Below, one piece after another: positions 38,299 to 57,180 of a stretch of 64,000 bases of DNA; the stretch's first letter is position 1; every line of letters begins with the position of its first letter. The DNA lies in assembly GCA_963845755.1 (NCBI GenBank), contig CAWJTV010000025.1:224001-288000 (forward strand), written 5' to 3'. Position numbers and translations under genes: made by a program. Source of the DNA: an uncultured Planctomycetota bacterium (GTDB lineage Bacteria; Planctomycetota; Planctomycetia; Isosphaerales; Isosphaeraceae). The notes below the pieces were generated by a model. It saw only the letters and a list, made by a program, of their open reading frames with translations. It made no database searches and was not told where the DNA came from.

Positions 38299-41200
38299 AT
38301 GTCTCAGCCATCCCGAACCCGGGCGCGCGGCCCAGCAGAGCGTCGTCGTCGTGATCTGAAGATCGAGCCGCCGACCCCCTTGGAGGACCGTCGCCTGCCT
38401 GCGCCGGTCGTCTCCTTGTTTCCCCTGGGGGTGTCGTTCGTACCCGCACCGACACCGACGAACGCGGACCTGGGCACCGTGGTGGTGACGGAGAACACCG
38501 CGGCGACGATCGCCGACTCGCAAGCACCGATCACGTCGGTGTCTGAGCTGACATCGAACGCTTCGTTCGGTAACGACATCGTCAACATCCAGCCGGGCCC
38601 GGGGGGCGTCTTCGGGGAAGACGTCTACGCGATCTCCCGAGGCGCCGGCGGCAACCCCGACGCGATCAACCGTCCGGGCGTGATCTATCGCGTTGATCCG
38701 GCCACCGGCAAGGCGAGCGTCTTCTTCGATCTCAACACGGTCCTCAGCCAGATCGACCCGACCAATAGCACGCCCGCGACCCCGGCGGCCAACTCGCTGG
38801 GCAACTCGACGGGGCTGGTGAACTGGTACAGTATGAGCTTCGACCCCGAGGGGAACTTCGACGGCACTCCGTCCTTGTTCGTCAGCAGCGTCAACCGCTC
38901 CGATCCGAACAAGAACATCATCTTCCAGATCGCCCCCAACGGCACGCTGATCGGCGTCTTCGTCCAGATGACCGACGGGCTCTCGGCCCAGAAGTTCAAC
39001 CTGAACCCCACGGCGATCCTGATCCCGCCGGTGCAGCAGCAGCAGTTCCTCAGCGGGATGATCGCCGGTAGCGGGATCAGCACGACGTCGGGCACGTTCG
39101 CGGCGCTCTACTTCAACCAGAACAGCTACTCTCCGGGCCAGGTCATCAGCAATTCCGTCCTGCCGACGGGCGTAAGCCAGACCAACCTGGGCCTGCCGGT
39201 GATCACCCAGGTGCTCACGAATTTCAATTCGGTCACGACGACCTCGGTCGCCACCGGACCGATCGTCGGCCTGACCTCGTCGAACAGCTACTATGGCAAC
39301 CAGACATTCTCGATCTTCACGGACTTCGGGACGTCGGCGGCCCCCGGGATCCCGGCCGCGCCGGGCTATAGCGGCGTCCAGGGGAGCGACGGCGAGCTGT
39401 TGATCGGTAATGCCACGACCCTCGCACTCAGCGCGACCGGGGACACCGACATCCAGCCCGCCGCGTCAACGTTGTTCCGGCGATTCTACGGCATCGCTTT
39501 CGACCAGTACGGCTACTTCTCCCAGGGTATGGCGATCGGGGCCAGCAGCACCGTGGGCAGCGGTACGAGCACAACGTTGACCGTCACCGATCCCCCGAGT
39601 TATGCCGGCAGCGTGTTCGTCAGCGACCTGTCGTCCGGGCTGTATATCAGCATCACGCCCCAGGCTCCGTTGCCCACCACGTCCATCCTGATCCCCGTCG
39701 AGGGGACGGGAGTCGTGAGCGTCACCTCGGATTCGAATGGAAACGTGATCCCGATCATCAGCTATGTCCCGAACCCGGACGGGTCGGTTGGCTTCGGCGG
39801 CCGTGTCGTCCGGATCACGCCGGCGGGCCTGGTGAACGAGTTCGCCTATGGGTTCAACGTGTCGCCGGACACGGGGTCCGACAGTTTCATCGATTCCACC
39901 CTGAGCATCGGGTTCTCGGGGGATGGGACGATCTTCTACGCCGCCGACAATACCGGGATCTGGCAGTTCAAGACGACCGCCGACCTGGCCGACTCGACCA
40001 GCGGAAGTCTGATCGGCCTGAACGACCTCCGCGCCCTGGGCGTCCCGTACGACGGCGAGAACAGCGCCGTGGCGGTGGTGGACACCGGCGTGGACGCCAG
40101 TGCGCCCTCGTTCCGCGGCCGGGTTGCCACCGGCACAAATATCATCACGGGCGGTGTCGGCAACCAGGATCTGGCCCCCGCCAGCACCGCGAGTACGACG
40201 ACGGGGGGGACCGGCGGAGGCGGCGGCGGCGGGGGAGTCGGCGGTCGCGGCGGTGGCGGTGGGGGTGGAGGTGGCGGTGGGGGCGGCGGCGGTGGGGGTG
40301 CCGGCGGCGGCGGTGGTGCGGGCCTAGGCATCACTGCAGGCGCCAGTGCCACTCAACGCGGCGGTGTTTCCGCGGGCGATCCCACGTTCCTCAACCAAAC
40401 CCCGGCCGGACACGGCACGCCGGTCGCGGGTGTCATCGCCCAGTTCGTCCCTCAAGCCACGATCGACCCCATCGATATCTTCAGCCCATTCTCCCCGTCC
40501 GCGAGCTTGATATCCAGCTCGACCACGGCGGGCGGCACCGGCGGCACCGGCGGCGGTGGTGGCGGCACCGGGACCGGGGGCGCGCTGAGCGAAACGACCA
40601 ACGACGATGGGGCCACATCCCAGACGCTCTACAACGGGCTTCAGTACCTGGTCGCGCACCCGTACGTCAACGATCCGCTCCGAGCGGGGCAAGTGGATCG
40701 CATCATCGCGGCCGTATACGCCTTCGGAACTTCCAATACGTTCGCCACCGAGGCGGGTGCATACAAGCAGTTCCCGCAAGTCGTCATCGCCCTGAAGAAT
40801 GAGTACCATAAGCTGCGCAAGGAGGGAATCGCCAACATCGCGGCGACCGGTCAGTTCGGCGCACCCCTGGGGGCATCGACCTCGTCTTCGACCACCACCA
40901 CCGGGACGGGCAGCTCGGGCGTCAATCTCGAGGCGAACAACAACGCCCAGAACGGGAGTGTGGGCGACAACGGCGGCATCTCGCTTCCCGCCATCATCAA
41001 CGAGGTGGTCTCCGTCACCGGCGTGTACTCCTTCCCCTTCACGGACACGCCTGGGACCTCGCCCATCGATACGCCGACCGGGGTCATTACCACGGGCGGC
41101 GCCTCCGAACCGGGCCCCGTCCTCCTCTTCGGATCGGACGCGACGATCGGCGGGACCGCAACGATCGGGTCCAGCAGCAGTGGGACAACCGGCGGCACCA

Positions 41201-43083
41201 CAGCGACCGGATTCAACGAGAACGCCCAGTTGCTCGCGGGGGCGGATTTCGCGATCTGGGCCGACCGCGTCCCCGGTGCCGCCAATCGCAATCCGACGAC
41301 GGACTTCGCCGCGCCGGCATTCAACGTGCCGACGTTCGCACGGAACGTCCAGATCGTGACCTCGAGCACCACGACCACGGGTACGGGCACCAACGGCACC
41401 AGCCCCTCCGGGATCATCAACCCCCTGACATTCACCCAGGTTGGCACTTCGATGTCCTCGGCGATCGTCACGGGTTCCTACGCCCTGGTGTCCTCCGCCC
41501 TCGACTACTGGATCGCGCTGGCCCAGTCCAATGGCTACACGGCCGACGCCTATCTGAACACGCCGGTCGGGACGGACTCCTTGAACTTCGGCAAGCACGC
41601 CTTCAAGAACCTCACCGCCTGGAACACCCCCGACGGTATCAACGGCATCCTCGCCTGGACCTCCGTGCCGGCCACCGACGTCAACGACGGGAATACCGCC
41701 TCCACGCCGTCCCAACTGCCCGATAGCACCGCATTCCCGTCCTACGCACGGATCTCCGTGGGCAACGCCATCGCCTCGGTCGAAGGTTATGTCGCCATCA
41801 ACTACCTGGAGAAGCATCATGACTTCCCGCTCATCGACACCAACCACGATGGCCTGATCACGGCCCAGGAGCTCACGAACTTCGTCAATGACGCCAACGC
41901 CATGGGCCTGCCCGAGGCGGGTGCCATGGCGAACCTCCTCGGCGGAACGGCGACCTACGGACCGGTCGAGGCGGGCGTCAACAACGAGATCTTCAACGAG
42001 AATCCCGACCAGCCGGCCGCCGAGCAGCGCCGGTTCAATTACTTCGATTTCGCGGCCGACGGCCAGCTCAACGGCTCGATCTCGACCCGAGAGCTTAAGA
42101 TGCTGGGCCGCACCCTGTTGCCGTCCCCCGACGCCTACACCATCGTCGATCGGCAACGCGCCTCGGCCAACGGCTTCTTGCTGGCGCCGGATACACCGCG
42201 CAACCTCGTCGCCTTGCAGCATCTCGCGCCCAAATTCCTGTGGGTTCCCAAGTCGGCGGTCGCCAAGTACCGCAACATCTCGCCCGCCCAGTTCAAGGTC
42301 GGTGCCGGCGAGTACCCGGGTCTCTACCTCCCGTTATTGACCCTGTTCGATTCTCCGCCGAACGCTTCCTCGGGTGGGACCCCCTCGACCCAGGATCAAG
42401 TCATCTCGATGACCAGGTCCGCAGTCGTCTCGGGTAAGAAGGTCACAGTCGACTACTTCGCGACCGTGACGCCAACCAGTACTCCCACCAGCACGACCAC
42501 GACGACGACACCGACACCGACCAGCTCGACACCGACACCGACACCGACCAGCCCCACGTCCACAAGCGCGGCTTCGACGGGCGTCACCGGCACGACAACG
42601 CAGGCAACGCCGACCTCCACATCGACGCAGGCGACCCTGGCCGAGACGATACTCGGCATCAACGATAGCAGTTCGTCGAGTACGTCGGGCTCCTCGGGCG
42701 GGACCAACTCGATCACCTCCTCGACCTCCCTGAACCCGACAGGGCTCACGATCTCCCAGTTATCCGTGGGACCCCTCTCGACCGCGGGGACCCTCAGCCC
42801 ATCTCCGACACCGACGCCCACACCGACACCGACGCCCACACCGACGCCCACACCGACGCCCACACCGACGCCCACACCGACGCCGAGCAGCACGGTCGCT
42901 CAGGTGCCGCTCGCGTACTCCTCGACGATTGCCACGGCCACGGCTACGGCCGCGGCGCAGGCCCAGGTCCCCTCCCACGCCGAGAAGCGCGTGTTGGTAA
43001 GGAAGGCGGCGGTGAAACCGAAAAAGAAGGCTACGAACGTGTTCGACCAGATGTGGAATAGCATCAAGAAGTCGTTCTCGTGA
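38299..43083 (+). CDS. Large secreted S8 (subtilase)-like protein with Gly/Thr-rich inserts, EF-hand-like motif and Pro-Thr repeats
   Basis: Planctomycete-type leader RRRRDLKIE..LEDRRLP; triad motifs VAVVDTG, HGTPVAG, GTSMSS; DTNHDGLITAQE; (PT)n tail. Confidence 0.8.
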   Translation: MSQPSRTRARGPAERRRRDLKIEPPTPLEDRRLPAPVVSLFPLGVSFVPAPTPTNADLGTVVVTENTAATIADSQAPITSVSELTSNASFGNDIVNIQPGPGGVFGEDVYAISRGAGGNPDAINRPGVIYRVDPATGKASVFFDLNTVLSQIDPTNSTPATPAANSLGNSTGLVNWYSMSFDPEGNFDGTPSLFVSSVNRSDPNKNIIFQIAPNGTLIGVFVQMTDGLSAQKFNLNPTAILIPPVQQQQFLSGMIAGSGISTTSGTFAALYFNQNSYSPGQVISNSVLPTGVSQTNLGLPVITQVLTNFNSVTTTSVATGPIVGLTSSNSYYGNQTFSIFTDFGTSAAPGIPAAPGYSGVQGSDGELLIGNATTLALSATGDTDIQPAASTLFRRFYGIAFDQYGYFSQGMAIGASSTVGSGTSTTLTVTDPPSYAGSVFVSDLSSGLYISITPQAPLPTTSILIPVEGTGVVSVTSDSNGNVIPIISYVPNPDGSVGFGGRVVRITPAGLVNEFAYGFNVSPDTGSDSFIDSTLSIGFSGDGTIFYAADNTGIWQFKTTADLADSTSGSLIGLNDLRALGVPYDGENSAVAVVDTGVDASAPSFRGRVATGTNIITGGVGNQDLAPASTASTTTGGTGGGGGGGGVGGRGGGGGGGGGGGGGGGGGAGGGGGAGLGITAGASATQRGGVSAGDPTFLNQTPAGHGTPVAGVIAQFVPQATIDPIDIFSPFSPSASLISSSTTAGGTGGTGGGGGGTGTGGALSETTNDDGATSQTLYNGLQYLVAHPYVNDPLRAGQVDRIIAAVYAFGTSNTFATEAGAYKQFPQVVIALKNEYHKLRKEGIANIAATGQFGAPLGASTSSSTTTTGTGSSGVNLEANNNAQNGSVGDNGGISLPAIINEVVSVTGVYSFPFTDTPGTSPIDTPTGVITTGGASEPGPVLLFGSDATIGGTATIGSSSSGTTGGTTATGFNENAQLLAGADFAIWADRVPGAANRNPTTDFAAPAFNVPTFARNVQIVTSSTTTTGTGTNGTSPSGIINPLTFTQVGTSMSSAIVTGSYALVSSALDYWIALAQSNGYTADAYLNTPVGTDSLNFGKHAFKNLTAWNTPDGINGILAWTSVPATDVNDGNTASTPSQLPDSTAFPSYARISVGNAIASVEGYVAINYLEKHHDFPLIDTNHDGLITAQELTNFVNDANAMGLPEAGAMANLLGGTATYGPVEAGVNNEIFNENPDQPAAEQRRFNYFDFAADGQLNGSISTRELKMLGRTLLPSPDAYTIVDRQRASANGFLLAPDTPRNLVALQHLAPKFLWVPKSAVAKYRNISPAQFKVGAGEYPGLYLPLLTLFDSPPNASSGGTPSTQDQVISMTRSAVVSGKKVTVDYFATVTPTSTPTSTTTTTTPTPTSSTPTPTPTSPTSTSAASTGVTGTTTQATPTSTSTQATLAETILGINDSSSSSTSGSSGGTNSITSSTSLNPTGLTISQLSVGPLSTAGTLSPSPTPTPTPTPTPTPTPTPTPTPTPTPTPSSTVAQVPLAYSSTIATATATAAAQAQVPSHAEKRVLVRKAAVKPKKKATNVFDQMWNSIKKSFS

Positions 43084-44489: not shown

Positions 44490-44597
44490 TGCAATCAATC
44501 CGGGTAGATCGTCGAAGAATCTTGCATTTGGCGCGGCCCTTTTCCACCATGATGAAATAGAGAAGAGCCAAAGAACCCTGGGAATCGGGCTGACCCA

Positions 44598-45605
44598 ATG
44601 CTCGAATGCGCGAATGACGCGATCTTGCTGGAACGCTTTGCCCGAGGCCGAGAAGAGGCCGCGTTCGTGGCGTTGGTCCAGCGCCATGGGCCCATGGTCC
44701 AGCGAATCTGCCGTCGCATCCTCCGCAATGAACAGGATGTCGAGGATGTCTTTCAGGCAACCTTCCTGATCCTGGCCCGGAAGGCGGCGGGGATCGCCTG
44801 GCAGGACTCGGCGAGTGGATGGCTGAGTGCGGTCGCCCGTCGATTGGCGATGAATGTCCGATCAGGAGCCGCTCGGCAACGCAGGCAGGAAACCTCGATC
44901 ACGGCCTTGGCGGGCGGTCCGGCGAACGGCCACGGGCACTTGCCGGAGAAGTTCCATCCCGTCGTCGATGCGTCCGCCGAGTTGGAGCGGCGCGATCTGC
45001 GGCGGATCCTGGACGACGAATTGCGGCACCTGCCCGAAAAATACCGGGTACCGGTGATCCTGTGCTACCTGGAAGGCCGGACACACGAGGAGGCCGCACG
45101 GCAACTCGGCTGGCCGGCCGGCTCGATGTCGCGGAGACTGGATCGGGCGCGGCAGATGCTGCGTCGGCGACTGGCTCATCGCGGTCTGGCCATCGCGGCC
45201 ATTGGCCTGGTCTCGGCCGCGTTCTTCGCGGTCAGCATCGGACGAGTACCCGACCCATCGTCCGGCGCCGCGGTGGTCCAGAAGGCGATGGCGCCGTTCC
45301 GGGCGACTTCAGAAGGAGGCCAGGGCTTCGGTTCCCTGCTCTCCGTACTCGCCCAATCCGCAAACGCGCCGCGCGAACCTGGGCCTATCCTGCGGCTCGC
45401 GCGTCAGGCCGCCCAGACGGCCCAGGTTATCAAGGAACACGATCCGGGGGCCCTGAGCGCCGCGTGGCAGCAGTATGCGACCGAGATGGAACGCTCGGCC
45501 ACGGACCTGCACCAGGCTGCTCAGGATGGAGACCGACTCTTACTCGTCGCCGCCGCACGCCGGCTCGACGCGAGTTGCCTCCATTGCCATGAGGTTTTCC
45601 GATAA
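44598..45605 (+). CDS. ECF sigma factor with a transmembrane helix and a C-terminal cytochrome c'-like CxxCH domain
   Basis: AFVALVQRHGPMV, DVEDVFQATF, LPEKYR..VILCYLEG.THEEAA; TM LAIAAIGLVSAAFFAVSI; ends LDASCLHCHEVFR. Confidence 0.85.
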   Translation: MLECANDAILLERFARGREEAAFVALVQRHGPMVQRICRRILRNEQDVEDVFQATFLILARKAAGIAWQDSASGWLSAVARRLAMNVRSGAARQRRQETSITALAGGPANGHGHLPEKFHPVVDASAELERRDLRRILDDELRHLPEKYRVPVILCYLEGRTHEEAARQLGWPAGSMSRRLDRARQMLRRRLAHRGLAIAAIGLVSAAFFAVSIGRVPDPSSGAAVVQKAMAPFRATSEGGQGFGSLLSVLAQSANAPREPGPILRLARQAAQTAQVIKEHDPGALSAAWQQYATEMERSATDLHQAAQDGDRLLLVAAARRLDASCLHCHEVFR

Positions 45606-46321
45606 TTCATGAAACCATGGCTGAAGGAATCGCGCCGCCCACCCAACCGACAACATGGTTCGCTCGAGCGCTAAACCGTTCAGTCGAGCATCCCCCAGGG
45701 CGACGCGAAGACCCTGCTAAACACCAGGCTGAAAATAATTTGGGATTTTTTATCTGCCGCTGGGGCTGAGAGTTGGGGCGGCTCCCGGCCGAAATCCCCG
45801 CTAGGTGCATTCACGGTTTTCTAAAGTTGCGGCATCCTGAGAGTATGGCCCACGTGCGATCACTGCCGAGACGGACGCCCGGACTGCGCCTCCCGGTCCA
45901 GGTTGTCGTCGTAACCGAATATCTGCCAAGGAGATCGGGGAGGGCGATCCGGGAAAAAGATGTCCCATTGTGCCACGTGATGACACCCGCATCGGTCGGT
46001 GAGTCCCGGAGGGGACCTGCGGTCGGCCGGGTGGCCAGGTCGGGAGACCGTGCCCCAGCGCGGGGCGCGGGCCATTCAAGTGTGAGGCGCTCTCGTCGGC
46101 ATCGAACTTCGGGTTCGAACGATTGCGTGGTGCGAATCGTAAGATGGACGGGGGCGCTTTGCGCCTGGACGTCGGGGAGGTTGGGGACCACGAAGAGTCT
46201 GGTCCGCGGACTAGCGTACGACTAGAATGGTTGAGATGACCGACTCGACGCGACGTGGATCGAATCTCCCCGCCCCCGGTCCCTCCCTCGAAACCCTCAC
46301 CTCCGGGCAGGTGCGAACGAT

Positions 46322-48512
46322 ATGGCGACGGCCACCAAGAAGTTTCCTCCGGCATCGACTCCTCCACCGCAGCGTGCGGCGCGTACGCCGAAGCCGTCCC
46401 TGGTGGACCGATTCGTCAATGGGGTTGATGCGGTCTATCGGTTTCTCGCGTCGCTGAAACTGGCGGTGATCTCGCTGGGGACCCTGGCCGCGACGCTGGC
46501 CTACGCGACATTCTTCGACTCGTGGTACGGGACCGCGGCCGTGCGGGAGTATATCTACCGCGCACCCGGCTTTGCGATCTTGCTGGCGTTCCTGGGGATG
46601 AACATCCTGTGCGCGGCCCTGATCCGGTACCCGTGGAAGAAGCGGCAGACCGGTTTTGTGGTGACGCACGCCGGGCTCCTCATCATGCTGGCCGGCTCGT
46701 ACTACAGCGTCCGGACCGCCGACGAAGGACAGGTGGGCATGCTCGAAGGAGACCGCAAGGGCGAGCTGGTCCGCACCGACTATCCCGTGATCCGGGTCTG
46801 GGAGGTCAACCCGCACACCCAGCGTTACACGCGCGAGATCGACCTGCCGTTCCTGCCCGGCTCGTTCGCATGGGGGCCGGGCAAACCCCAGTCCCAAGGC
46901 GTCTTCGACCGGCTGGGCTCGACGCTCACCCTCGGTCTGGCCGGAACAACCCCGGTCACCGAGGAGGTCTTGAGCAAGCCGGGCGATCCGTTCCGGTTCG
47001 TGGTCAGGGAGCACCTGCCGTCATCGGCCCCCTCGAAGGAGCACGTCGCGGACCCTGACGGCGCACCCATGGCCCGCATCCGCGTCCTGTTCAAGCCACC
47101 CGGGGGCGCCCAGGAGATGGACGCATTCCCCTCCGACGGCGCCCAATGGTTCGCGACCGAGAAGAAGTTCTACCGGGTCACACGCGCGCCCATGGCCGGT
47201 GCTCCCGCCTTGATCACGTTCTCGGCCGTGGATCGGCCCGAGCTGGTCGCGGACTTCCTCAAACCTCCGGCGACGACCGGCAAGGAAGGGGTCGCACGCT
47301 TCCGCTACCCCGATCAATCCGGCCGCACCCGCGTCTTCGACTGGGCGCTGGATGGGCAGCAAGGCAAGTCGGTCAGCCTGCCGGAGAGCGATCTCAATGT
47401 CACGATGACCGAGCTCCTCGCGCTCCAACCCCAGGAATTCCGGCTGAATCGCTACCTGGGCGAGGATCCGCTCCCGATCGCCAAGTTCGAGGTTCGGCAC
47501 GGCGGCGGCGAGTTCGACCACCCACATGGCGATGGCGAACTTGCCGATGGTTCCTCCCGTCCTTCCCTCGCACGATCAGTCCGGTGCGGCCCCGAAGCCG
47601 CCGCTCGCGACGATCCATTACATGGTCAACCCGGTCATCGATCCCCAAACCAATGGCCGCTTCGGGCAGATCGACGTCCTGGCGGGTCCCGACGATTCGC
47701 TCTCATACCGCGTCTTCGGCCGGGGCAAGGACGGCCAGGGCGAGCTCCGTGCCGCCGGCGCGGTCACCAAGGGGACGCCGATCGTCGCCTTCGGTGGCAA
47801 TCCCAACATGCCGATGACGATTCGCTTCGAGGTCGACGAGTACCTGCCCGCGGGGATCGCCAGGGACATCTTTGTCCCCGTCGAGCTCCCGAAGGGGAAA
47901 AAGGATGAAGGGATCGGCGCCTGCCGGGTCGAGATGACCGTGGGCAACGAGACCAAGGAGCTCTGGCTCGAACGTTCGCTCAACCTCGAACCGCCGTCGC
48001 CGCAGATCGTCACGTTTCGCGATGCGGCCTACGCGATCGCCTACGATTGCGACCGCAAGCCACTTGGTTTCGAGCTGAAGCTCGACGATTTCGACGTCGG
48101 CTTCGAGCCGGGCACCGAGCAGCCGACCAAGTTCGTCAGCCATGTCCGGCTCACCGACAAGGCGGACGAGATCAAGGACGAGTCGCACACGATCTCGATG
48201 AACCATCCACTTTACCACAACGGATACACCTTCTACCAATCGCGATACGTTCCGGACCTGGACGAACACAAACAACCCAATGGGCGCTTCCAGTCGATCT
48301 TCCAGGTGGCCATCAACCCCGGCCGCCCGATCATCTATGCCGGCTGCATGATGGTGGTCCTGGGCGCCTTCCTCCAGTTCTACATGAGGGCGGGGATCTT
48401 CACGGATGGCGGCAAGCGGGAACGCGAACGCGCCGCCGCCAAGGCGAGTGCCAATGCGACCAAGGCCAAGGGGAAGTTGCTCCAGCAAGCCGAACAGACC
48501 GAGCGCCTTTAG
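46322..48512 (+). CDS. resB: ResB/CcsB-like cytochrome c biogenesis protein (frameshift near 47515)
   Basis: FLASLKLAV, GFVVTHAGL (conserved His), LKLDDF, ISMNHPL..GYTFYQS, PGRPIIYAG. Confidence 0.8.
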
Positions 48513-48593
48513 GTCAGGCTTTCCAGCCTGATGACCAAGACCTGTCAGGCCGGAAAGCCTGACCTACCCGAGCGAGCCGCCGGAGACTTGAAC

Positions 48594-51333
48594 ATGAGAC
48601 GTATTGCCAAACGACTCGCCGGTTTGATCCTGGCCGGCACGATGGTTGGTGGGCTTCCCGCGCGGGGCGACGAGGCTGTCAAACCGATGGGGGTCGGGAA
48701 CAGCTACGACCAGATCGGCAAGGTCGCGGTCATGCACCAGGGGCGGGTCAAGCCGCTCGACACCGTGGCCCGCGAGGAAGTCAAGCAGGTCTACAGCCGT
48801 GAGACGATCTCGCTTCGCGACCCCCGCGAGGAGGTCGAGAAGCTGCTCGATCCCGAGTCCTTCCACAAGCCGGGGGGCACGCAGTGGACGGTCGAGAAAT
48901 GGGGGCCGGTTGGCTCCTTCCTCGGCTGGACCGTGCGGCCCGAGTTCTGGGACGATCAGCCGTTCATCCTCGTCGATTACCTGCCGTTGCGGCGCCTGAT
49001 CGTGGCCGGACCACTCGAGGCACGGCTCAAGGCGATCGCCGAGAAGCCGACGACCTCCGCCGAGGATAAGGCGGTGTTGCTGAAGCTCGCGGCCGATCGC
49101 GAGCCGACGGCCACCACCCTGATCGAGTTCGCCCGCGGTTCCAAGCTGCCGGTCGAGGATCGCCGCTTCATCGCCGAGCTCGCGGTCAAGCTGACCGAAG
49201 AGCACAAGTGGCTCACTCCGCGCGAGCTGGAAGAAGCGACGATCACCGTCAAGGGCGAGCCCCAGCCGTTTCGGAGCTGGGTCATGGCCATGAGCGAGCA
49301 GCAGCGGAAGTTCCACAACGATCCGACCTCCGTCGAGCGTCCCACCGAGATCGAGCGCCGCGCGGTCGAAGCGGCCCAACGGTTGATGACCTATCAGGCT
49401 TACAGCGAGGACCAGTTCCGGACCAACGGACTGATCCTGATCGTGCCCCGTCCGTCCGATGCGAAGTACCTGGCCTACACGGCCAGGACGGTCACCGAGG
49501 CGCGCAAGCCCGATGCGCACGTTCGACGATCTGCCGTTGATGAAGCTCGACGCCCTCAAGGCGATCGCCACCTACTGGAACTTCATCCCGCGCGAGGAGC
49601 ACAAGACGCCGACGGAAGACAAGGAGGCCGACGAGAAATTCACGGCCTGGTTGCGGGAAAGCTCGACCTGGGTCCCACTCAAGGTACTCTTGAAGTCGAA
49701 GCCTGAAGAGCTGGTCGAGGCGGGCTACTCCGAGGGGCTGGTCCGATCGTTCCTGACCGCGTATCGCGATCTGGAGCAGGCCGAGACCCGCGCTCCCGGC
49801 CAGGTCTCCGAGGCGGTGGCGACCAGCTTCTTGACGGCCTCCCGATCCCTGGGCGAGGCGGCCTCGACGGCCTATCCCACCATCCCGACGATCGAGCGCG
49901 AGACTTATTTCAACGCCACCAACCCGTTCTGGACGGCGCCGTTCGCCTATGGTGCCGCGGTGATGCTGCTGGTGGTGGGCCTGGCGTTCGCGTCCACGAC
50001 ATCCAAGGGATCGCTGGGCGGTCGCGTGGGCCTCGGCATTTATGGCCTGGGAATGCTCGGCCTGTTGAGCGGGATCGCCCTGGAGATCTGGGGCTTTTAT
50101 TTCCGGGTGCGGATCACGGGCTGGGCACCGGTGACGAACATGTATGAGACGGTCATCTGGGTCGCCCTGGTGGCCGCGGTCCTGTCGGTGGTCTTCGAGG
50201 CGATCTTCCGCCGAGTGTACTTCGCGCTGGCCGGCTCGGCCGTCGCGCTGCTGGGCACGCTCACGGCGGCGAACGTCCCGCTCCTGGACCCGAGCATCAA
50301 GAGCCTCCAGCCGGTGCTACGGAGCAACCTCTGGCTGACGATCCACGTGCTGACCGAGGTCTCGAGCTACGCGGCGTTCGGGCTGGCCTGGATGCTGGGC
50401 CTGATCGCCACCGCCTTCTACTTGACGGCCACCTACCGACGGTCGCCGCGATTCGGCGAGCTGGCGCTGTTGCTGATCCCCGGCCTGCCGCTGGCGATCG
50501 TGGGCGGGGTTGGCGTCGCGGCCTCCTACGGGCTCTTCGGCCCGCAATGGGTGGTCCCCGACCTCCTGTTCTATGTCTTCGCGGTCATGGGTCTGCTGGG
50601 AGGCATGATCTCGCTGGCCGCCGTGTTGGCGCTGCTCGGTGAAGTCGTCGCCCGGCTCATGTTCCGCGACGAGGTCAACCGGACGGACGACACGGAGCCA
50701 CCCGCCTGGGAGCCCGAGGACTTCGCGGGCGAGCCTTCGGCGCTCGGATCTTCCGACCATGAAGGCGGCGTGGCCACGATGGTCAAGCCGACGCTCGCCG
50801 CACTCCGGGCGCGGGCCACCACGACCAAGGTCCAGCTCGACGCGCGCGGGCTGGCCATGCAGCGCACGGCGGCGACGGTCAAGCCGCTGTCCAACTTCAT
50901 TTACCGGACGATGCAGGTCGGGGTGCTCTTGATCGCGGCCGGGACGATCCTGGGCGGCGTCTGGGCAGACTATTCCTGGGGCCGGTTCTGGGGGTGGGAT
51001 GCCAAGGAAGTCTGGGCGCTGATCACCCTGCTCGTCTACCTGATCCCGCTCCACGGCCGCTTCGCCGGCTGGGTCAATACCTTCGGTCTCGTATTCGCTT
51101 CGGTCTTCTGCTACCTCTCCGTGGTCATGGCCTGGTACGGCGTCAACTTCGTCCTGGGCGTGGGCTTGCACAGCTATGGCTTCGTCGAAGGCGGCTCGCA
51201 GGGTGCCATGAGCGTGATCCTCGCGGGCATCCTGGCATTCCCCGTCGGCGCCGCCTGGCGACGCCGGTTGGGATATCGCCCGATGTTCACGGAGCCCTCA
51301 ACCGGCTCCGGCGAGCCTGAGACCCTGGGCTGA
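48594..51333 (+). CDS. ccsA: Cytochrome c biogenesis protein CcsA/ResC with a large N-terminal periplasmic domain (frameshift near 49515)
   Basis: GRVKPLDT, APVTNMYE, PVLRSNLWLTIHV, WWD domain WADYSWGRFWGWDAKEVW, GLHSYG. Confidence 0.9.
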
Positions 51334-52138: not shown

Positions 52139-52765
52139 ATGGATCAGGGTCGGGTTGAGGAAACCGGGACCGATCGCGTCCAATGGGGCCAGTTCCTCTC
52201 GGCCCATCGCGACCGCCTTCGGCGGATGGTGGCTCTGCGGCTGGATCAGCGTTTGCGCGGTCGGATCGACCCCTCGGACGTGATCCAGGAGGCGTTCGTG
52301 GAGGCTATCGAGCGACAGTCCGAGTATGAGCGCCAGCCGGATGCCATGCCGCCGTTCTTATGGCTGAGATTCCTGACGCTCCAGCGGTTGCAGCTCTTGC
52401 ATCGCCGACAGCTCGGGACTCAGGCCCGGGACGCCAGCCGCGAGGTGTCGATCCACGGCGGAGCCTTCCCGGCGGCGAGTTCGGCCGCACTGGCGGCGCG
52501 GCTGCTGGGCCACGACACCCGCCCCAGCGAGGCGGCCATCCGCGTCGAGCGCACTCAGCGGCTCCAGAAGGCCCTCGATGAGATGGACGCGATCGACCGG
52601 GAGGTGCTAGTGCTGCGGCACTTCGAGCAGCTCGGCAACGGCGAGTGCGCGCGGGTGCTAGAATTGAGCGAGTCGGCGGCGAACAAGCGCTACATCAGGG
52701 CCTTGAGACGGCTCAAGGCGATGCTCGCGGCCCTGCCGGGCGGAGAGAAGGAGGTCTGGCCATGA
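52139..52765 (+). CDS. Planctomycete-type ECF sigma factor (kinase-associated)
   Basis: RLRRMVALRLDQRLRGRIDPSDVIQE, DREVLVLRHFEQL, KRYIRALRRL; ATGA overlap with the kinase gene. Confidence 0.92.
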   Translation: MDQGRVEETGTDRVQWGQFLSAHRDRLRRMVALRLDQRLRGRIDPSDVIQEAFVEAIERQSEYERQPDAMPPFLWLRFLTLQRLQLLHRRQLGTQARDASREVSIHGGAFPAASSAALAARLLGHDTRPSEAAIRVERTQRLQKALDEMDAIDREVLVLRHFEQLGNGECARVLELSESAANKRYIRALRRLKAMLAALPGGEKEVWP

Positions 52766-55700
52766 GCGACGGATCGGCGCCGGCGCCGGAAGACGATCTC
52801 CTGGGGCCAATTCTCGAGTCATTCGTGCATCGGTTCCGTCGCGGCGAGCGGCCGTCGCTGACCGAGCTCATCACTCGACACCCCGAGCTGGCCGCGCAGA
52901 TCCGCGAGCTGGTCCCGGCGCTGGTTGATCTGGAGCAACTCGCGGGCTCGTCCCACGGCCCGGTTGGGTCCGCAAGGCCTCGGCCAGCCTCGGCCATCAC
53001 CCGGGATGAGGGCCCTACGCCCGAGCAGTTGGGCGACTATCGCATCCTCCGCCGGATCGGCGGCGGCGGGATGGGCGTGGTTTATGAGGCCGAGCACGAG
53101 GCGCTCGAGCGCAGTGTGGCGCTGAAGGTCATGCTCCCGCGTTTGCGGGACGATCCGAGATACTTGCGGCGGTTCCACACCGAGGCCAGCCTGACGGCGG
53201 GGCTGCACCACACGAACATCGTCGGTGTCTTCGACTACGGCGAGCAGGACGGTGTCTGCTATTACGCGATGCAGTTGATCCAGGGGCAACCCCTGGACTG
53301 CGTCCTGGCCGACATCCGTCTCCTGCGCGAGAGCCAGAGGCAAGGCGATCATCAGAGCGGCTCCGATCGGCTTCCGAACATCCCGGCGGCGGACGCATCG
53401 ATCGCCGGCTCGGCCGCCGCTCGAGGGCTCTTGAGCGGCCGCTTCGACGTGGCCATGACGAGCGACGAGGCCGTGGCCGTCACGCTCCCGATCGGAGTCG
53501 GCGACCCGGACGGTCCGGGATCCTCGGGAACGGGTGCGGAGGCGACTGCGGACGTGCCGGCGGATCGGCCGTCGTCGCTCGGTTCGTCGACGCTGGGCCC
53601 CTCTGGTGAGCTGCGCTACTACCGCGAGGTCGCGCGGATTGGTGCCCAGGTCGCCGACGCCCTGGAATACGCCCACCGACGCCGTATCATCCATCGCGAC
53701 ATCAAGCCGTCGAACCTGCTGCTCGACGCCCAGGGCAACGTGTGGGTGACCGACTTCGGCCTGTCGCGGCTGACGGATAACGCCGACCTGACCCAGTCGC
53801 GCGAGTTGGTCGGGACGCTCCGCTACATGGCGCCGAGCGGCTCCGTGGGAAGTCGGACCGCCGCAGCGACGTGTATTCCCTGGGGGCGACCCTGTACGAG
53901 ATGGTGGCCTTGCGTCCACCTTTCGAAGAAGCCGACGAGATCCGGCTGATGGAGCGCATCCGGAACGACGCGCCGATGACGCCGCGCCAGTTCGACCAGA
54001 AGCTCCCGCGCGACCTGGAGACCATCCTCTTCAAGACACTGGCCAAGGACCCGAAGGACCGATTCAGCTCGGCAGCGGCCCTGGCCGACGAGCTGCGGCG
54101 GTTCATCGACGGGCGGCCAATCCGGTCGCGGCCGGTGTCGGTTCCCGAGCAGTTCTGGCGCTGGTGCAAGCGCGACCCCTGGCTGGCTGGTGCGAGCATT
54201 TCCGCCGCGGCGGTGACGATCATTCTGGCCGTCGTATCGATGGCCGCGGCGATCATCTATCGCGACCAGGCCGAGGCGCTACGGGTGGAGCGGAACCGCT
54301 CGGACGTGGCCCTGCTGGATGCCAGCCGACGGGCCGTCGATGCCTACACGGCGCAGGCGCGAGGCGGCCGGCTCAGCCACCGCCCCGGGCAGCGCTTCGA
54401 GACCCTCGAGGCGGTGAAGCAGGCCGCCAGGCTGCTCGACGGCCTTCCGCTCGGGCCGGATACTGCCTCCCGGCGCGACGAGCTTCGCGAGCTGGCGATT
54501 GCCGCGATGGCCTTGCCCGACCTCCAGCCGACCGGCCGGGTCATCGCGCGGCCATCGGGCGTGATCGCGACGGCGTTCGATTCCGGGATGTCCCGCTACG
54601 CGCTGCGGTTCCGCGATGGGCGGATCTTGGTCCGACGCGTGGCCGATGACCAGGAGATCGCCTCGTTCCAGGCCCGGGGCGATCGCGACGTCTGGATCTT
54701 CGGTTTCAACCCCGACGGCCGCTATCTGGCGACCAACCATCCCCCCGACGGGGCGCTGACGGTCTGGGATGTCAACCGGCGCGTCGCCGTTGTGGACGAC
54801 CCGGGCCCCATCAGCCTGGCGGCGCGATTCAGCCCGGACGGTCGTTCGCTCGCGGTGGCCCGACGTGGAGAGCTTGTTGTTTACGACCTGGCGACCGGCC
54901 GGCCCAGCCGGCGCTGGCCCGGAAATGTCGACTGCCTGGCCTTCCGTCCGGACGGGACCCAGATCGCGGTCATCGACGACGTGGCAAAGCCCCCGACCTG
55001 GCGGATCCTGGACGCCAACTCGGGCCGGGAGGTCCGGGCGTTCCCCTTGCGGGTCTTCGCCGACGATGTCGTCTGGAACCCCGCAGGCACCATGCTGGCC
55101 ACGACGACGCGCATTCAGGAGCACAAGATCGACCTGTGGGATGTCGTGACCGGAAACCGCAGGGCCACTCTGGGAGGTCATACGAATCTCGGCTTGCGCG
55201 CGTCCTTTCACCCGGCTGGTACGCTGCTGGCCAGCAATGGCTTTGAAGGTCGTCTCCGGCTGTGGGATCCGATCCTGGGCCGGCCCCTGCTCGACGTGAC
55301 GAGCGGATCCGGGCCCGAGTTCAGTGCGGACGGAAGGATCGTCGTCTCGAACGACGACAAGCTGATTATCCATGAAGTCGACCCCGCCCGGGAGTATCGG
55401 ACATTCGCCTATCCCCTCGCGAAGCGAACCGGTTATGCCGACCCGTCCGTCCGATCTGACGGCCGGCTGCTCGCGGTCGGGACCGATGCCGGCGTGTTAC
55501 TCTGGGACCTGGCCCGCGGCACCGAACTCGCCTGGATGCCGATCCAGGTCGCCTGGCACGTGATGTTCGAGGAGTCGGGCGACCTGATCACGAGCGGCCC
55601 GCTGGGTGTGAATCGCTGGCCGATCCAGCTCGACGCCGGCCGCGGCGAGGTCCGCATCGGCCCGCCGCGTCAGCTCCCGCTGCCGGGGTTGAATTGCGGC

Positions 55701-57180
55701 ATAGGCGAGGACCGGTCGGGTCGGATCGTGGCCAAGTCCGACCATGATTATGCTTACGTGACCACTCCTGAGGGGACGAAGCGTTTGAGTTCTCTGAACG
55801 ACTGCCGTTCTGTCGCCGTCAGCCCGGACGGGCAATGGCTGGCGACCGGGACTCACATCGCGAGTCACGGGGCCCAGGTTTGGCGCATCGCTGACCTCAC
55901 CAAAGTCGCCGACCTGCCCATCGATTACGGTACGGTGGTCTACTTCAGCCCCGATGGCAAATCGCTGATGACCACGGCTTCTCCCTGCCGGCTCTGGGAC
56001 GTTGGCACCTGGCGCGAGGTGAGACGAATCGGTGACACTGCCGGCTGCTTCTCCCCCGACGGCCGGCTGGTGGTTGTCCAGGAAGCGAACAAAATGATCC
56101 GCCTGGTGGAAACGGAGACCGGTCGCACGCTGGCGCGGCTCGAGAGCCCCGACCTCTGCCCCATCCAGCCGACCTTCAGCCCGGACGGATCACGGCTGGT
56201 GGCGATCACGAACGACGGCCCGGCCGTGCACGTGTGGGACCTGCGGGCCATCCGGAAGCAACTGGCCGGGATGGGCCTCGATTGGGACGCGCCCGCCTAT
56301 TCCGGCGACGACCCGTCCGACCCATCGGCACGGCCGTTAACCTCGGTGCAAGTTCGCTATGAGGGAGACGGGATCGCCGAGGGAGACGCCCTGGCCCGCG
56401 AGGGTCGATGGAACGAGGCAGCCGCCGCCTATGCCCGGGCCTTCGACGAGGGGGTCCTGGACCAGGCGGAGGCGCTGGTCCGAACAGGCGTTCCTTCGCC
56501 TGGCGGTGGGCGACGCCGCGGGATATGGTCGGAGCTGCCGGCGTATCCTCGATCGGTTCAGGATCCTGAAGAGATTTGAACCGGCCGGGCACGAGGATCC
56601 GGCTTACGTGATCAACTGGCATTGCTACACGGCATACACGCTAGCCGTGGCCCCAGGTAGCCCGGCCGACGCGGCGCAGGTCTTGCGAATCGCCAAGGGG
56701 TGGGTCGAAGTCTCGCACTCGGCTTGGTCCGAGCAGGTGTTCGGGCTGGCCCTCTACCGTGCCGGACGGTTCGCCGAGGCTGAGACGTGGCTTCGGAGCT
56801 TCCTCGACCGTCATCCCTTACGGGATTACCACGTCTTCGACTGGCTGGTCCTGGCCATGGCCGATCAGCGGCTGGGGCGACCGGACGAAGCCCGACGCTG
56901 GCTGGAGCAAGCCGAGACCTGGGCCGCATCTCGACGGCGCGGCCGGCCCGGAGGTTCCGATCGGGCAACCCCCGAAAACTGGCACTGGACCGACGGAGTG
57001 TTGTTACACCTGCTGCTCCGCGAAGCCCGCGCCCTGGTCGGTACGGAGCTGCCAGTGCTGCCCGGGGACGTCTTCGCGCCCGCGCCTCGAGCGCCTGTTC
57101 CGAAAGCCCGAAGGGACGACAGAAACCCTGGGGATCCGAGAGATTTTGTCGCCCTTCCGGGGCTCGCAGGACGGTCGTGA
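52762..57180 (+). CDS. Ser/Thr kinase with TM segment, WD40 repeats and TPR tail (frameshifts near 53840 and 56470)
   Basis: GGGGMG, VALK, HRDIKPSN, DFG, GTLRYMAP; repeated FSPDG..LA..WD; LGxALYRAG-type TPR. Confidence 0.88.

Follow-up and report, generated by a model that had tools for sequence, protein, structure and literature searches.

A 64,000-nucleotide stretch of the genome of an uncultured Planctomycetota bacterium of the family Isosphaeraceae (GenBank assembly GCA_963845755.1, contig CAWJTV010000025.1, positions 224,001 to 288,000; hereafter the window) encodes an extracytoplasmic function (ECF) sigma factor of the ECF57 type that continues, through a predicted membrane helix, into a class II cytochrome c domain ending in a CxxCH haem-attachment motif, upstream of the cytochrome c maturation genes resB and ccsA. 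It represents a conserved ECF57 subfamily with a cytochrome tail, a link to resB-ccsA and an upstream motif of its own, and this combination appears to be new; membrane-anchored ECF57 sigma factors and the proteolytic release of fused sigma factors are already known or proposed, as far as the accessible parts of PMC7826278 and of PMC8999054 and its bioRxiv version go. We propose that this membrane-anchored sigma factor carries its tail as a test substrate for haem attachment by ResB-CcsA, a reading whose chances we judge to be evenly balanced, and, a little more tentatively, that the two planctomycete families in which it occurs share, together with the self-promoter, an old one-protein quality-control circuit in which the sigma factor is a client of the machine it induces and gauges maturation capacity by what becomes of its CxxCH tail. 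The initial annotation knew of no described example of such feedback and, in line with this, neither a sigma-cytochrome c fusion nor its link to resB-ccsA is described in the full-text literature searched, which extended neither to subscription articles nor to the founding work on planctomycete ECF sigma factors.

Few signalling groups have expanded as much in planctomycetes as ECF57, of which this genome has 88 related sigma loci; the accessible part of the group description (PMC7826278 supplement) cites no studied member or signal. The subfamily is small and single-copy, its sensor is chemically defined (CxxCH), and both a promoter and a target can be proposed for it, which makes the membrane-release hypothesis directly testable.

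The sigma-cytochrome protein and its family

The initial annotation recognised sigma regions 2 and 4, one membrane helix and a helical tail, all of which are borne out by Pfam, hydropathy and structure modelling, and it placed the CxxCH motif exactly. The sigma regions match Sigma70_r2 (E 5.5e-11) and Sigma70_r4_2 (E 1.1e-13; Table 1), and the recognition helix of the latter is specific to the subfamily, being unique among the 48 paralogue helices parsed, out of 88 loci. Eight residues past region 4, with no cytoplasmic anti-sigma domain between, starts the sole hydrophobic segment of the protein (Kyte-Doolittle 2.29), whose hydropathy is at least 1.6 in 32 of 33 orthologues. Since lysine and arginine are richer before this helix than after it in all 33 proteins, and a second helix is absent, the sigma part is predicted to lie inside and the cytochrome part outside the membrane (N-in/C-out), as the initial annotation had supposed for the tail.

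Cytochrom_C_2 (PF01322) matches residues 288-335 (E 3.9e-5), scoring 26.8 bits for the domain alone against a cut-off of 26.5 and, for the whole protein, slightly below it at 25.0. Modelled separately (pLDDT 85.6), the tail forms a four-helix up-down bundle whose helix A is broken by a loop; the full-length model (pLDDT 59) served for domain boundaries alone. Cytochromes c' and cb562 rank first in Foldseek, none at E <= 0.001, and a wide structure search returns 6r6n on top (Z 11.8, rmsd 2.5, 101 residues aligned), tied with unrelated bundles, so that the fold alone is not specific for class II cytochromes. A sequence search of solved structures left helix A unaligned.

By ungapped extrapolation from the starts of the aligned ranges, Met231 maps to residue 16 of 1cgo, 6a3k and 2ccy and to residue 32 of the C32M variant of Kusta0087 (6r6n); in four rows it also falls on b562 residue 7, with a shift of one position in two further rows. 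We take b562 Met7 and Kusta0087 residue 32 to be axial haem ligands. Met231 is kept in 27 of the 32 proteins of alignment A3, which gives the unbiased count (its invariance in alignment A5 is an artefact of row choice), Trp290 in 32/32, Met297 in 29/32 and CxxCH, whose conservation the initial annotation treated as decisive, in 32/32. In gas-binding cytochrome c', Leu16 crowds an empty distal haem site (PMC11201058, accessible part). With Met231 and not a Leu-type residue predicted at the distal position, NO or CO binding does not follow from the motif, and a His/Met state, with His331 and Met231 as sixth ligand, is the likeliest on the modelled register, although Met231 may also be non-ligating, in which case the haem could be five-coordinate as in gas-binding c'. 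The class II signature read by the initial annotation thus stands, while its extension to a gas-binding c' is weakened. CxxCH is retained where the Met helix has decayed (the loci of genus g66, L124 and L125), and in G254, a genome of the second family, it is still there on a tail cut to about two helices; judged from these sequences, the attachment site is the part of the tail conserved longest.

The protein is a planctomycete ECF sigma factor with sigma2 and sigma4, a cysteine pair and a C-terminal membrane extension, and is on these described group features, rather than on a group profile or tree, assigned to the ECF57 type. Cys38 and Cys156 are invariant in 33/33 full-length proteins, as are, among other columns, Trp290, Cys327, Cys330 and His331. 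ECF57 members have conserved cysteines in sigma2 and sigma4 and an extension averaging about two membrane helices, and their release from the membrane is a published hypothesis (PMC7826278 supplement, accessible part). The likeness therefore extends from the planctomycete host and the cysteine pair to the C-terminal extension with a membrane helix and the proposed release, but there is one helix here as against about two, and a class II cytochrome c tail in place of WD40 or homeodomain-like ones; the resB-ccsA link and the conserved upstream motif appear nowhere in the accessible part of the group description (PMC7826278). A sigma factor joined to a membrane-spanning extension is also found in ECF48, ECF52 and ECF53 and in IutY of Pseudomonas putida (ECF243), for which proteolytic release by Prc and RseP has been shown (PMC8999054, accessible part). 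Those proteins, however, have an anti-sigma part built in and answer to a siderophore receptor or an unknown cue, whereas here an anti-sigma part is absent, the helix comes straight after sigma4 and the outer domain is a haem protein; the parallel is limited to mode of action.

With cytochromes c' (PF01322; 1cgo, 6a3k, 2j9b) the tail shares the four-helix bundle and C-terminal CxxCH, but it is membrane-tethered and sigma-fused, its helix A is interrupted by a loop, and at the predicted distal position it has Met where they have Leu or Phe. Kusta0087 (6r6n) and the low-spin His/Met cytochromes c-556 and cb562 share the fold, and the last two, like the C32M variant of Kusta0087, also have the helix A methionine at the distal position, but all are soluble electron carriers or NO-binding complexes with no transcription role. 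Stand-alone class II cytochromes of planctomycetes (L160-L179) have in common with the tail a Met-x-x-Phe helix A, a Gly-rich loop, the tryptophan and the CxxCH helix, but a signal peptide takes the place of the sigma domain; at the 20 such loci fetched, no sigma or resB match to the window's proteins was found at the gene. Sequence resemblance makes such secreted cytochromes the likely source of the tail.

A search with the C-terminal region yielded 14 close proteins and, up to E 1e-10, 203 library representatives, which include stand-alone cytochromes. CxxCH is present in 12 of the 14 (the other two have C-termini that look frameshifted) and in 69/69 representatives that include part of sigma4 and extend to the C-terminus, a proportion biased upward by a search profile that contained the motif. 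Within the window's family, a four-row profile matched 46 of 121 genomes; 43 of these places were fetched and one (L096) was dropped as a stand-alone cytochrome, and in all 42 remaining genome loci the protein opens with the sigma domain and closes with CxxCH. Named records carrying the fusion belong to Isosphaeraceae, Singulisphaera and unclassified Planctomycetota. A second family has it in two genomes, G776 and G254, while a search of 300 phylum genomes outside the two families (E 1e-60) did not find it and no further family with it appeared among 350 genomes of the class (E 1e-75). G001, of the same genus as the window, matched neither the sigma tail nor resB, which is uninformative in a genome 87% complete, and the ESM Atlas returned nothing but generic planctomycete sigma clusters, under 0.9.

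Two further proteins were noted. P0137 (685 residues) has the same type of sigma4 helix, a membrane helix, an extra domain and a complete class II cytochrome of the stand-alone type, and is a possible intermediate. A second ECF57-like sigma factor of the window's genome (G000:C1:168860-171300, + strand) has an extension with two CxxCH motifs, presumably resembling a di-haem oxidoreductase; with it, c-type haem tails appear to have arisen on such sigma factors more than once.

Gene order and promoter motifs at resB and ccsA

The maturation genes are identified by matches to PF05140 for ResB (E 2.3e-19) and to PF01578 (E 3.6e-25) and TIGR03144 (E 1.2e-39, under that model's cut-off) for CcsA, and each is single-copy in the 14.3 Mb genome (tblastn). 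Order and strand agree with the initial annotation, which had missed that each gene carries one frameshift. At both places the window has one extra base compared with 4/4 relatives, and as many related assemblies show similarly scattered breaks, these are probably assembly errors.

Conserved linkage had been suggested as a check, and, among the 40 loci whose downstream sequence is long enough, resB indeed starts within 900 bases of the sigma gene in 37, with ccsA next in turn in 32/35. The upstream epimerase directly adjoins the sigma gene in 23/39 loci, and the window's gene after ccsA recurs at none of the family loci. Related genomes are not independent, so these counts are no statistical test; nevertheless, the resB link is tighter than that of the neighbour controls, so that plain synteny is weakened and insufficient as the whole explanation. 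The gene next to the sigma gene is again resB in four metagenome loci (two of them near-duplicates of L014) and, in a second set of 40 resB loci taken mainly from genomes without a profile match, 11 have an upstream sigma gene that had been missed or is broken. Of these 11, located by position alone, 10 carry CxxCH and the eleventh (L123) is a sigma fragment. The linkage crosses into the second family in G776, where motif A and the sigma-cytochrome gene are followed by a gene for a lipoprotein-like product and then by resB-ccsA in fused form. Such a lipoprotein-like gene lies before resB in each of the two genomes examined from that family (L223:2153-3223, L250:5625-6788), and in G776 resB continues in frame into the N-terminal part of CcsA.

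A bipartite element upstream of the sigma gene, motif A, was found in 40 of 44 orthologue upstream regions, compared with 86 of 22000 shuffles, and in 9 of 11 further loci under a slightly looser pattern; both second-family copies (G776 and G254) have it in exact or variant form. Among the 88 paralogous sigma loci of the genome it is found in one, its own, the other 87 being without it. From this distribution we propose motif A as a candidate self-promoter, which the sigma factor would itself recognise. The initial annotation had pointed to the sequence between the sigma gene and resB (45606-46321) as the place to look for a target, and a conserved motif does lie there, about 100 bp before resB. 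This motif B ends in a housekeeping-like TARAAT, however, and where resB has no sigma gene beside it, the motif recurs in 19 of 29 loci (against 6 of 5800 shuffles, with a pattern loosened after inspection). As it persists without the sigma gene, motif B is unlikely to need the sigma-cytochrome protein and is rejected as its target. The proposed induction of resB-ccsA by the sigma factor is thereby modified: motif A is the better candidate target and, since it travels with the sigma gene, any induction would be by read-through from the self-promoter. From the end of the sigma gene to resB, the + strand showed no terminator-like site. Searches for a wider regulon gave no excess: a genome scan with motif B returned 6 matches against 5 in shuffled sequence, and a strict motif A pattern in five genomes returned five scattered sites, one of them the self site.

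Table 1. Positions of the features discussed, in window coordinates
Feature	Position	Strand	Basis or remark
ECF57-type sigma factor with class II cytochrome c tail (335 aa)	44598..45605	+	ORF call, Pfam
Sigma region 2, residues 26-87, including Cys38 at 44709	44673..44858	+	Pfam PF04542
Sigma region 4, residues 136-188, including Cys156 at 45063; recognition helix GSMSRRL	45003..45161	+	Pfam PF08281
Single predicted transmembrane helix, residues 196-214	45183..45239	+	Kyte-Doolittle hydropathy
Class II cytochrome c four-helix domain, residues 220-335, predicted periplasmic	45255..45602	+	PF01322, structure model, fold matches
Met231, predicted distal haem position	45288..45290	+	conservation 27/32; register extrapolated from aligned ranges
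CxxCH haem-attachment motif, residues 327-331	45576..45590	+	sequence; 32/32 in alignment A3
resB (ccsB), System II cytochrome c maturation; frameshift near 47514-47520	46322..48512	+	PF05140, tblastn
ccsA (resC), WWD motif, probable start 48594; frameshift near 49512-49523	48531..51333	+	PF01578, TIGR03144, motifs
Motif A (GCATY, 18-20 bp, CAT), bipartite, candidate self-promoter	44522..44554	+	about 45-75 bp before sigma start codon
Motif B (CTGGTC, 18 bp, TAGAAT), candidate resB promoter of housekeeping type	46199..46228	+	conserved among loci
Dispersed repeat, about 400 bp, between sigma gene and resB	45693..46093	.	genome copies; outside conserved system

The proposed circuit and its alternatives

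In the circuit we propose, as long as ResB-CcsA keeps up, the tail would gain haem (through His331, with Met231 as probable sixth ligand), fold and shield the membrane helix. Once haem attachment lags, periplasmic proteases would trim the tail that lacks haem, RseP, which is encoded in the genome (above the TIGR00054 cut-off), would then cut the membrane helix, and the freed sigma factor would start transcription at motif A. This would run through the sigma gene and on into resB-ccsA, adding read-through to the basal level from motif B. The outcome would be a negative feedback loop on maturation capacity. A sensor of capacity is plausible because one maturation machine serves many CxxCH clients; in the long six-frame open reading frames of the genome, CxxCH occurs 511 times, compared with 45-187 for six control motifs. 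If the proposal is true, cytochrome c maturation would have a regulator of its own, one that detects the pathway's product on its own body, a design unmatched in the literature searched, and it would provide a ready reporter of haem-attachment capacity.

Several observations weigh against this proposal. A sigma gene of this kind is not adjacent in 29 of the 40 resB loci of the second set; three loci of one genus (L015, L059, L060) and the named Singulisphaera records L191, L192 and L195 hold it away from resB, and in G254 the fusion gene lies apart from its resB, motif A or a variant having stayed with the detached gene. In that genus, the 450 bp before resB yielded no motif A. The latter half of motif A could also pass for a housekeeping -10 box, its genome-wide count (27 matches against 23 in shuffled sequence) shows no excess, and in this genome the repeat of about 400 bp sits in the path of the presumed read-through. 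Finally, that the haem-free form would be the activating state is a direction we set by the logic of the circuit.

The haem-loaded tail might instead be a redox or gas sensor (NO, CO, O2), in which an event at the iron, for example Met231 being displaced, alters the tail, triggers release and adjusts cytochrome c maturation to respiratory conditions. We regard this as unlikely but of some weight, as the fold matches are cytochromes c' and the anammox cytochrome Kusta0087, and as Trp290, Met231 and Met297 are conserved beyond the needs of a bare tag. Kusta0087/0088 binds NO, and one cytochrome c' has a non-ligating Met at the position equivalent to Met231. The NO and CO binding of cytochrome c' (PMC11201058, accessible part) counts in the same direction. 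With Met where gas-binding c' has Leu16, however, the sixth site is apparently filled, and CxxCH outlasts the Met helix in several lineages, which favours the test-substrate reading over a gas sensor. It is rather unlikely, in our estimate, that the protein senses in a haem-dependent way but acts on other targets than resB-ccsA, and that its position reflects the benefit of co-expression for a client, or inherited gene order. The resB promoter motif does not depend on the sigma gene, one genus and G254 have intact copies of the fusion apart from resB, and ECF57 tails are modular, a second paralogue in the genome also having CxxCH motifs, all of which would suit such a sensor; but no second motif A site stands above background here, nor consistently in five other genomes, and the resB link persists where the upstream neighbour is gone and is found again in a second family.

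Very unlikely, finally, is a sigma factor active only with a haem-loaded tail (a positive feed-forward), or one switched without cleavage through Cys38 and Cys156. In favour of such readings, the cysteine pair is invariant, no cytoplasmic anti-sigma domain separates sigma4 from the membrane helix, and ECF57 has been suggested to switch by conformation or through a metal (PMC8999054 section 15, accessible part). However, the pair is common to ECF57 regardless of the tail (48/88 paralogue frames by a crude pattern) and so does not explain the cytochrome, and for an essential pathway a positive loop makes less sense.

Further features of the locus and its surroundings

The sigma gene and resB are separated by 716 intergenic bases, of which about 400 are the dispersed repeat, a feature the initial annotation had not noticed. 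The repeat has about 15 near-full copies in the genome, at 81-94% identity, plus many partial ones. Terminal inverted repeats were not found in it, and no Rfam family scores above threshold in the intergenic region (best E 0.27), an intergenic RNA being rejected on this account; similar sequence occurs in several soil runs. Elsewhere in the subfamily, the sigma gene is partly or wholly deleted between the upstream neighbour and resB in L123 and L129, with motif B remaining, and is shortened internally in L095; these may be ongoing losses or assembly faults.

Many of the 88 paralogues appear, by eye, to have a bipartite variant of their own, made up of an A-tract, a -35 element, a spacer and a -10 element, and these may constitute a set of orthogonal sigma-promoter pairs. 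A k-mer count over the paralogue upstream regions found no shared motif, and ECF57 promoter motifs are described as lacking conservation across the group (PMC7826278 supplement, accessible part).

Further out in the window, positions 38299-43083 encode a 1594-residue low-complexity protein with subtilase-like motifs recognised by eye, which is found upstream in part of the family. Positions 52139-57180 hold an ECF sigma factor of planctomycete type (best match TIGR02984, below cut-off) followed by a frameshifted Ser/Thr kinase-WD40-like gene, neither with conserved adjacency to ccsA in the relatives.

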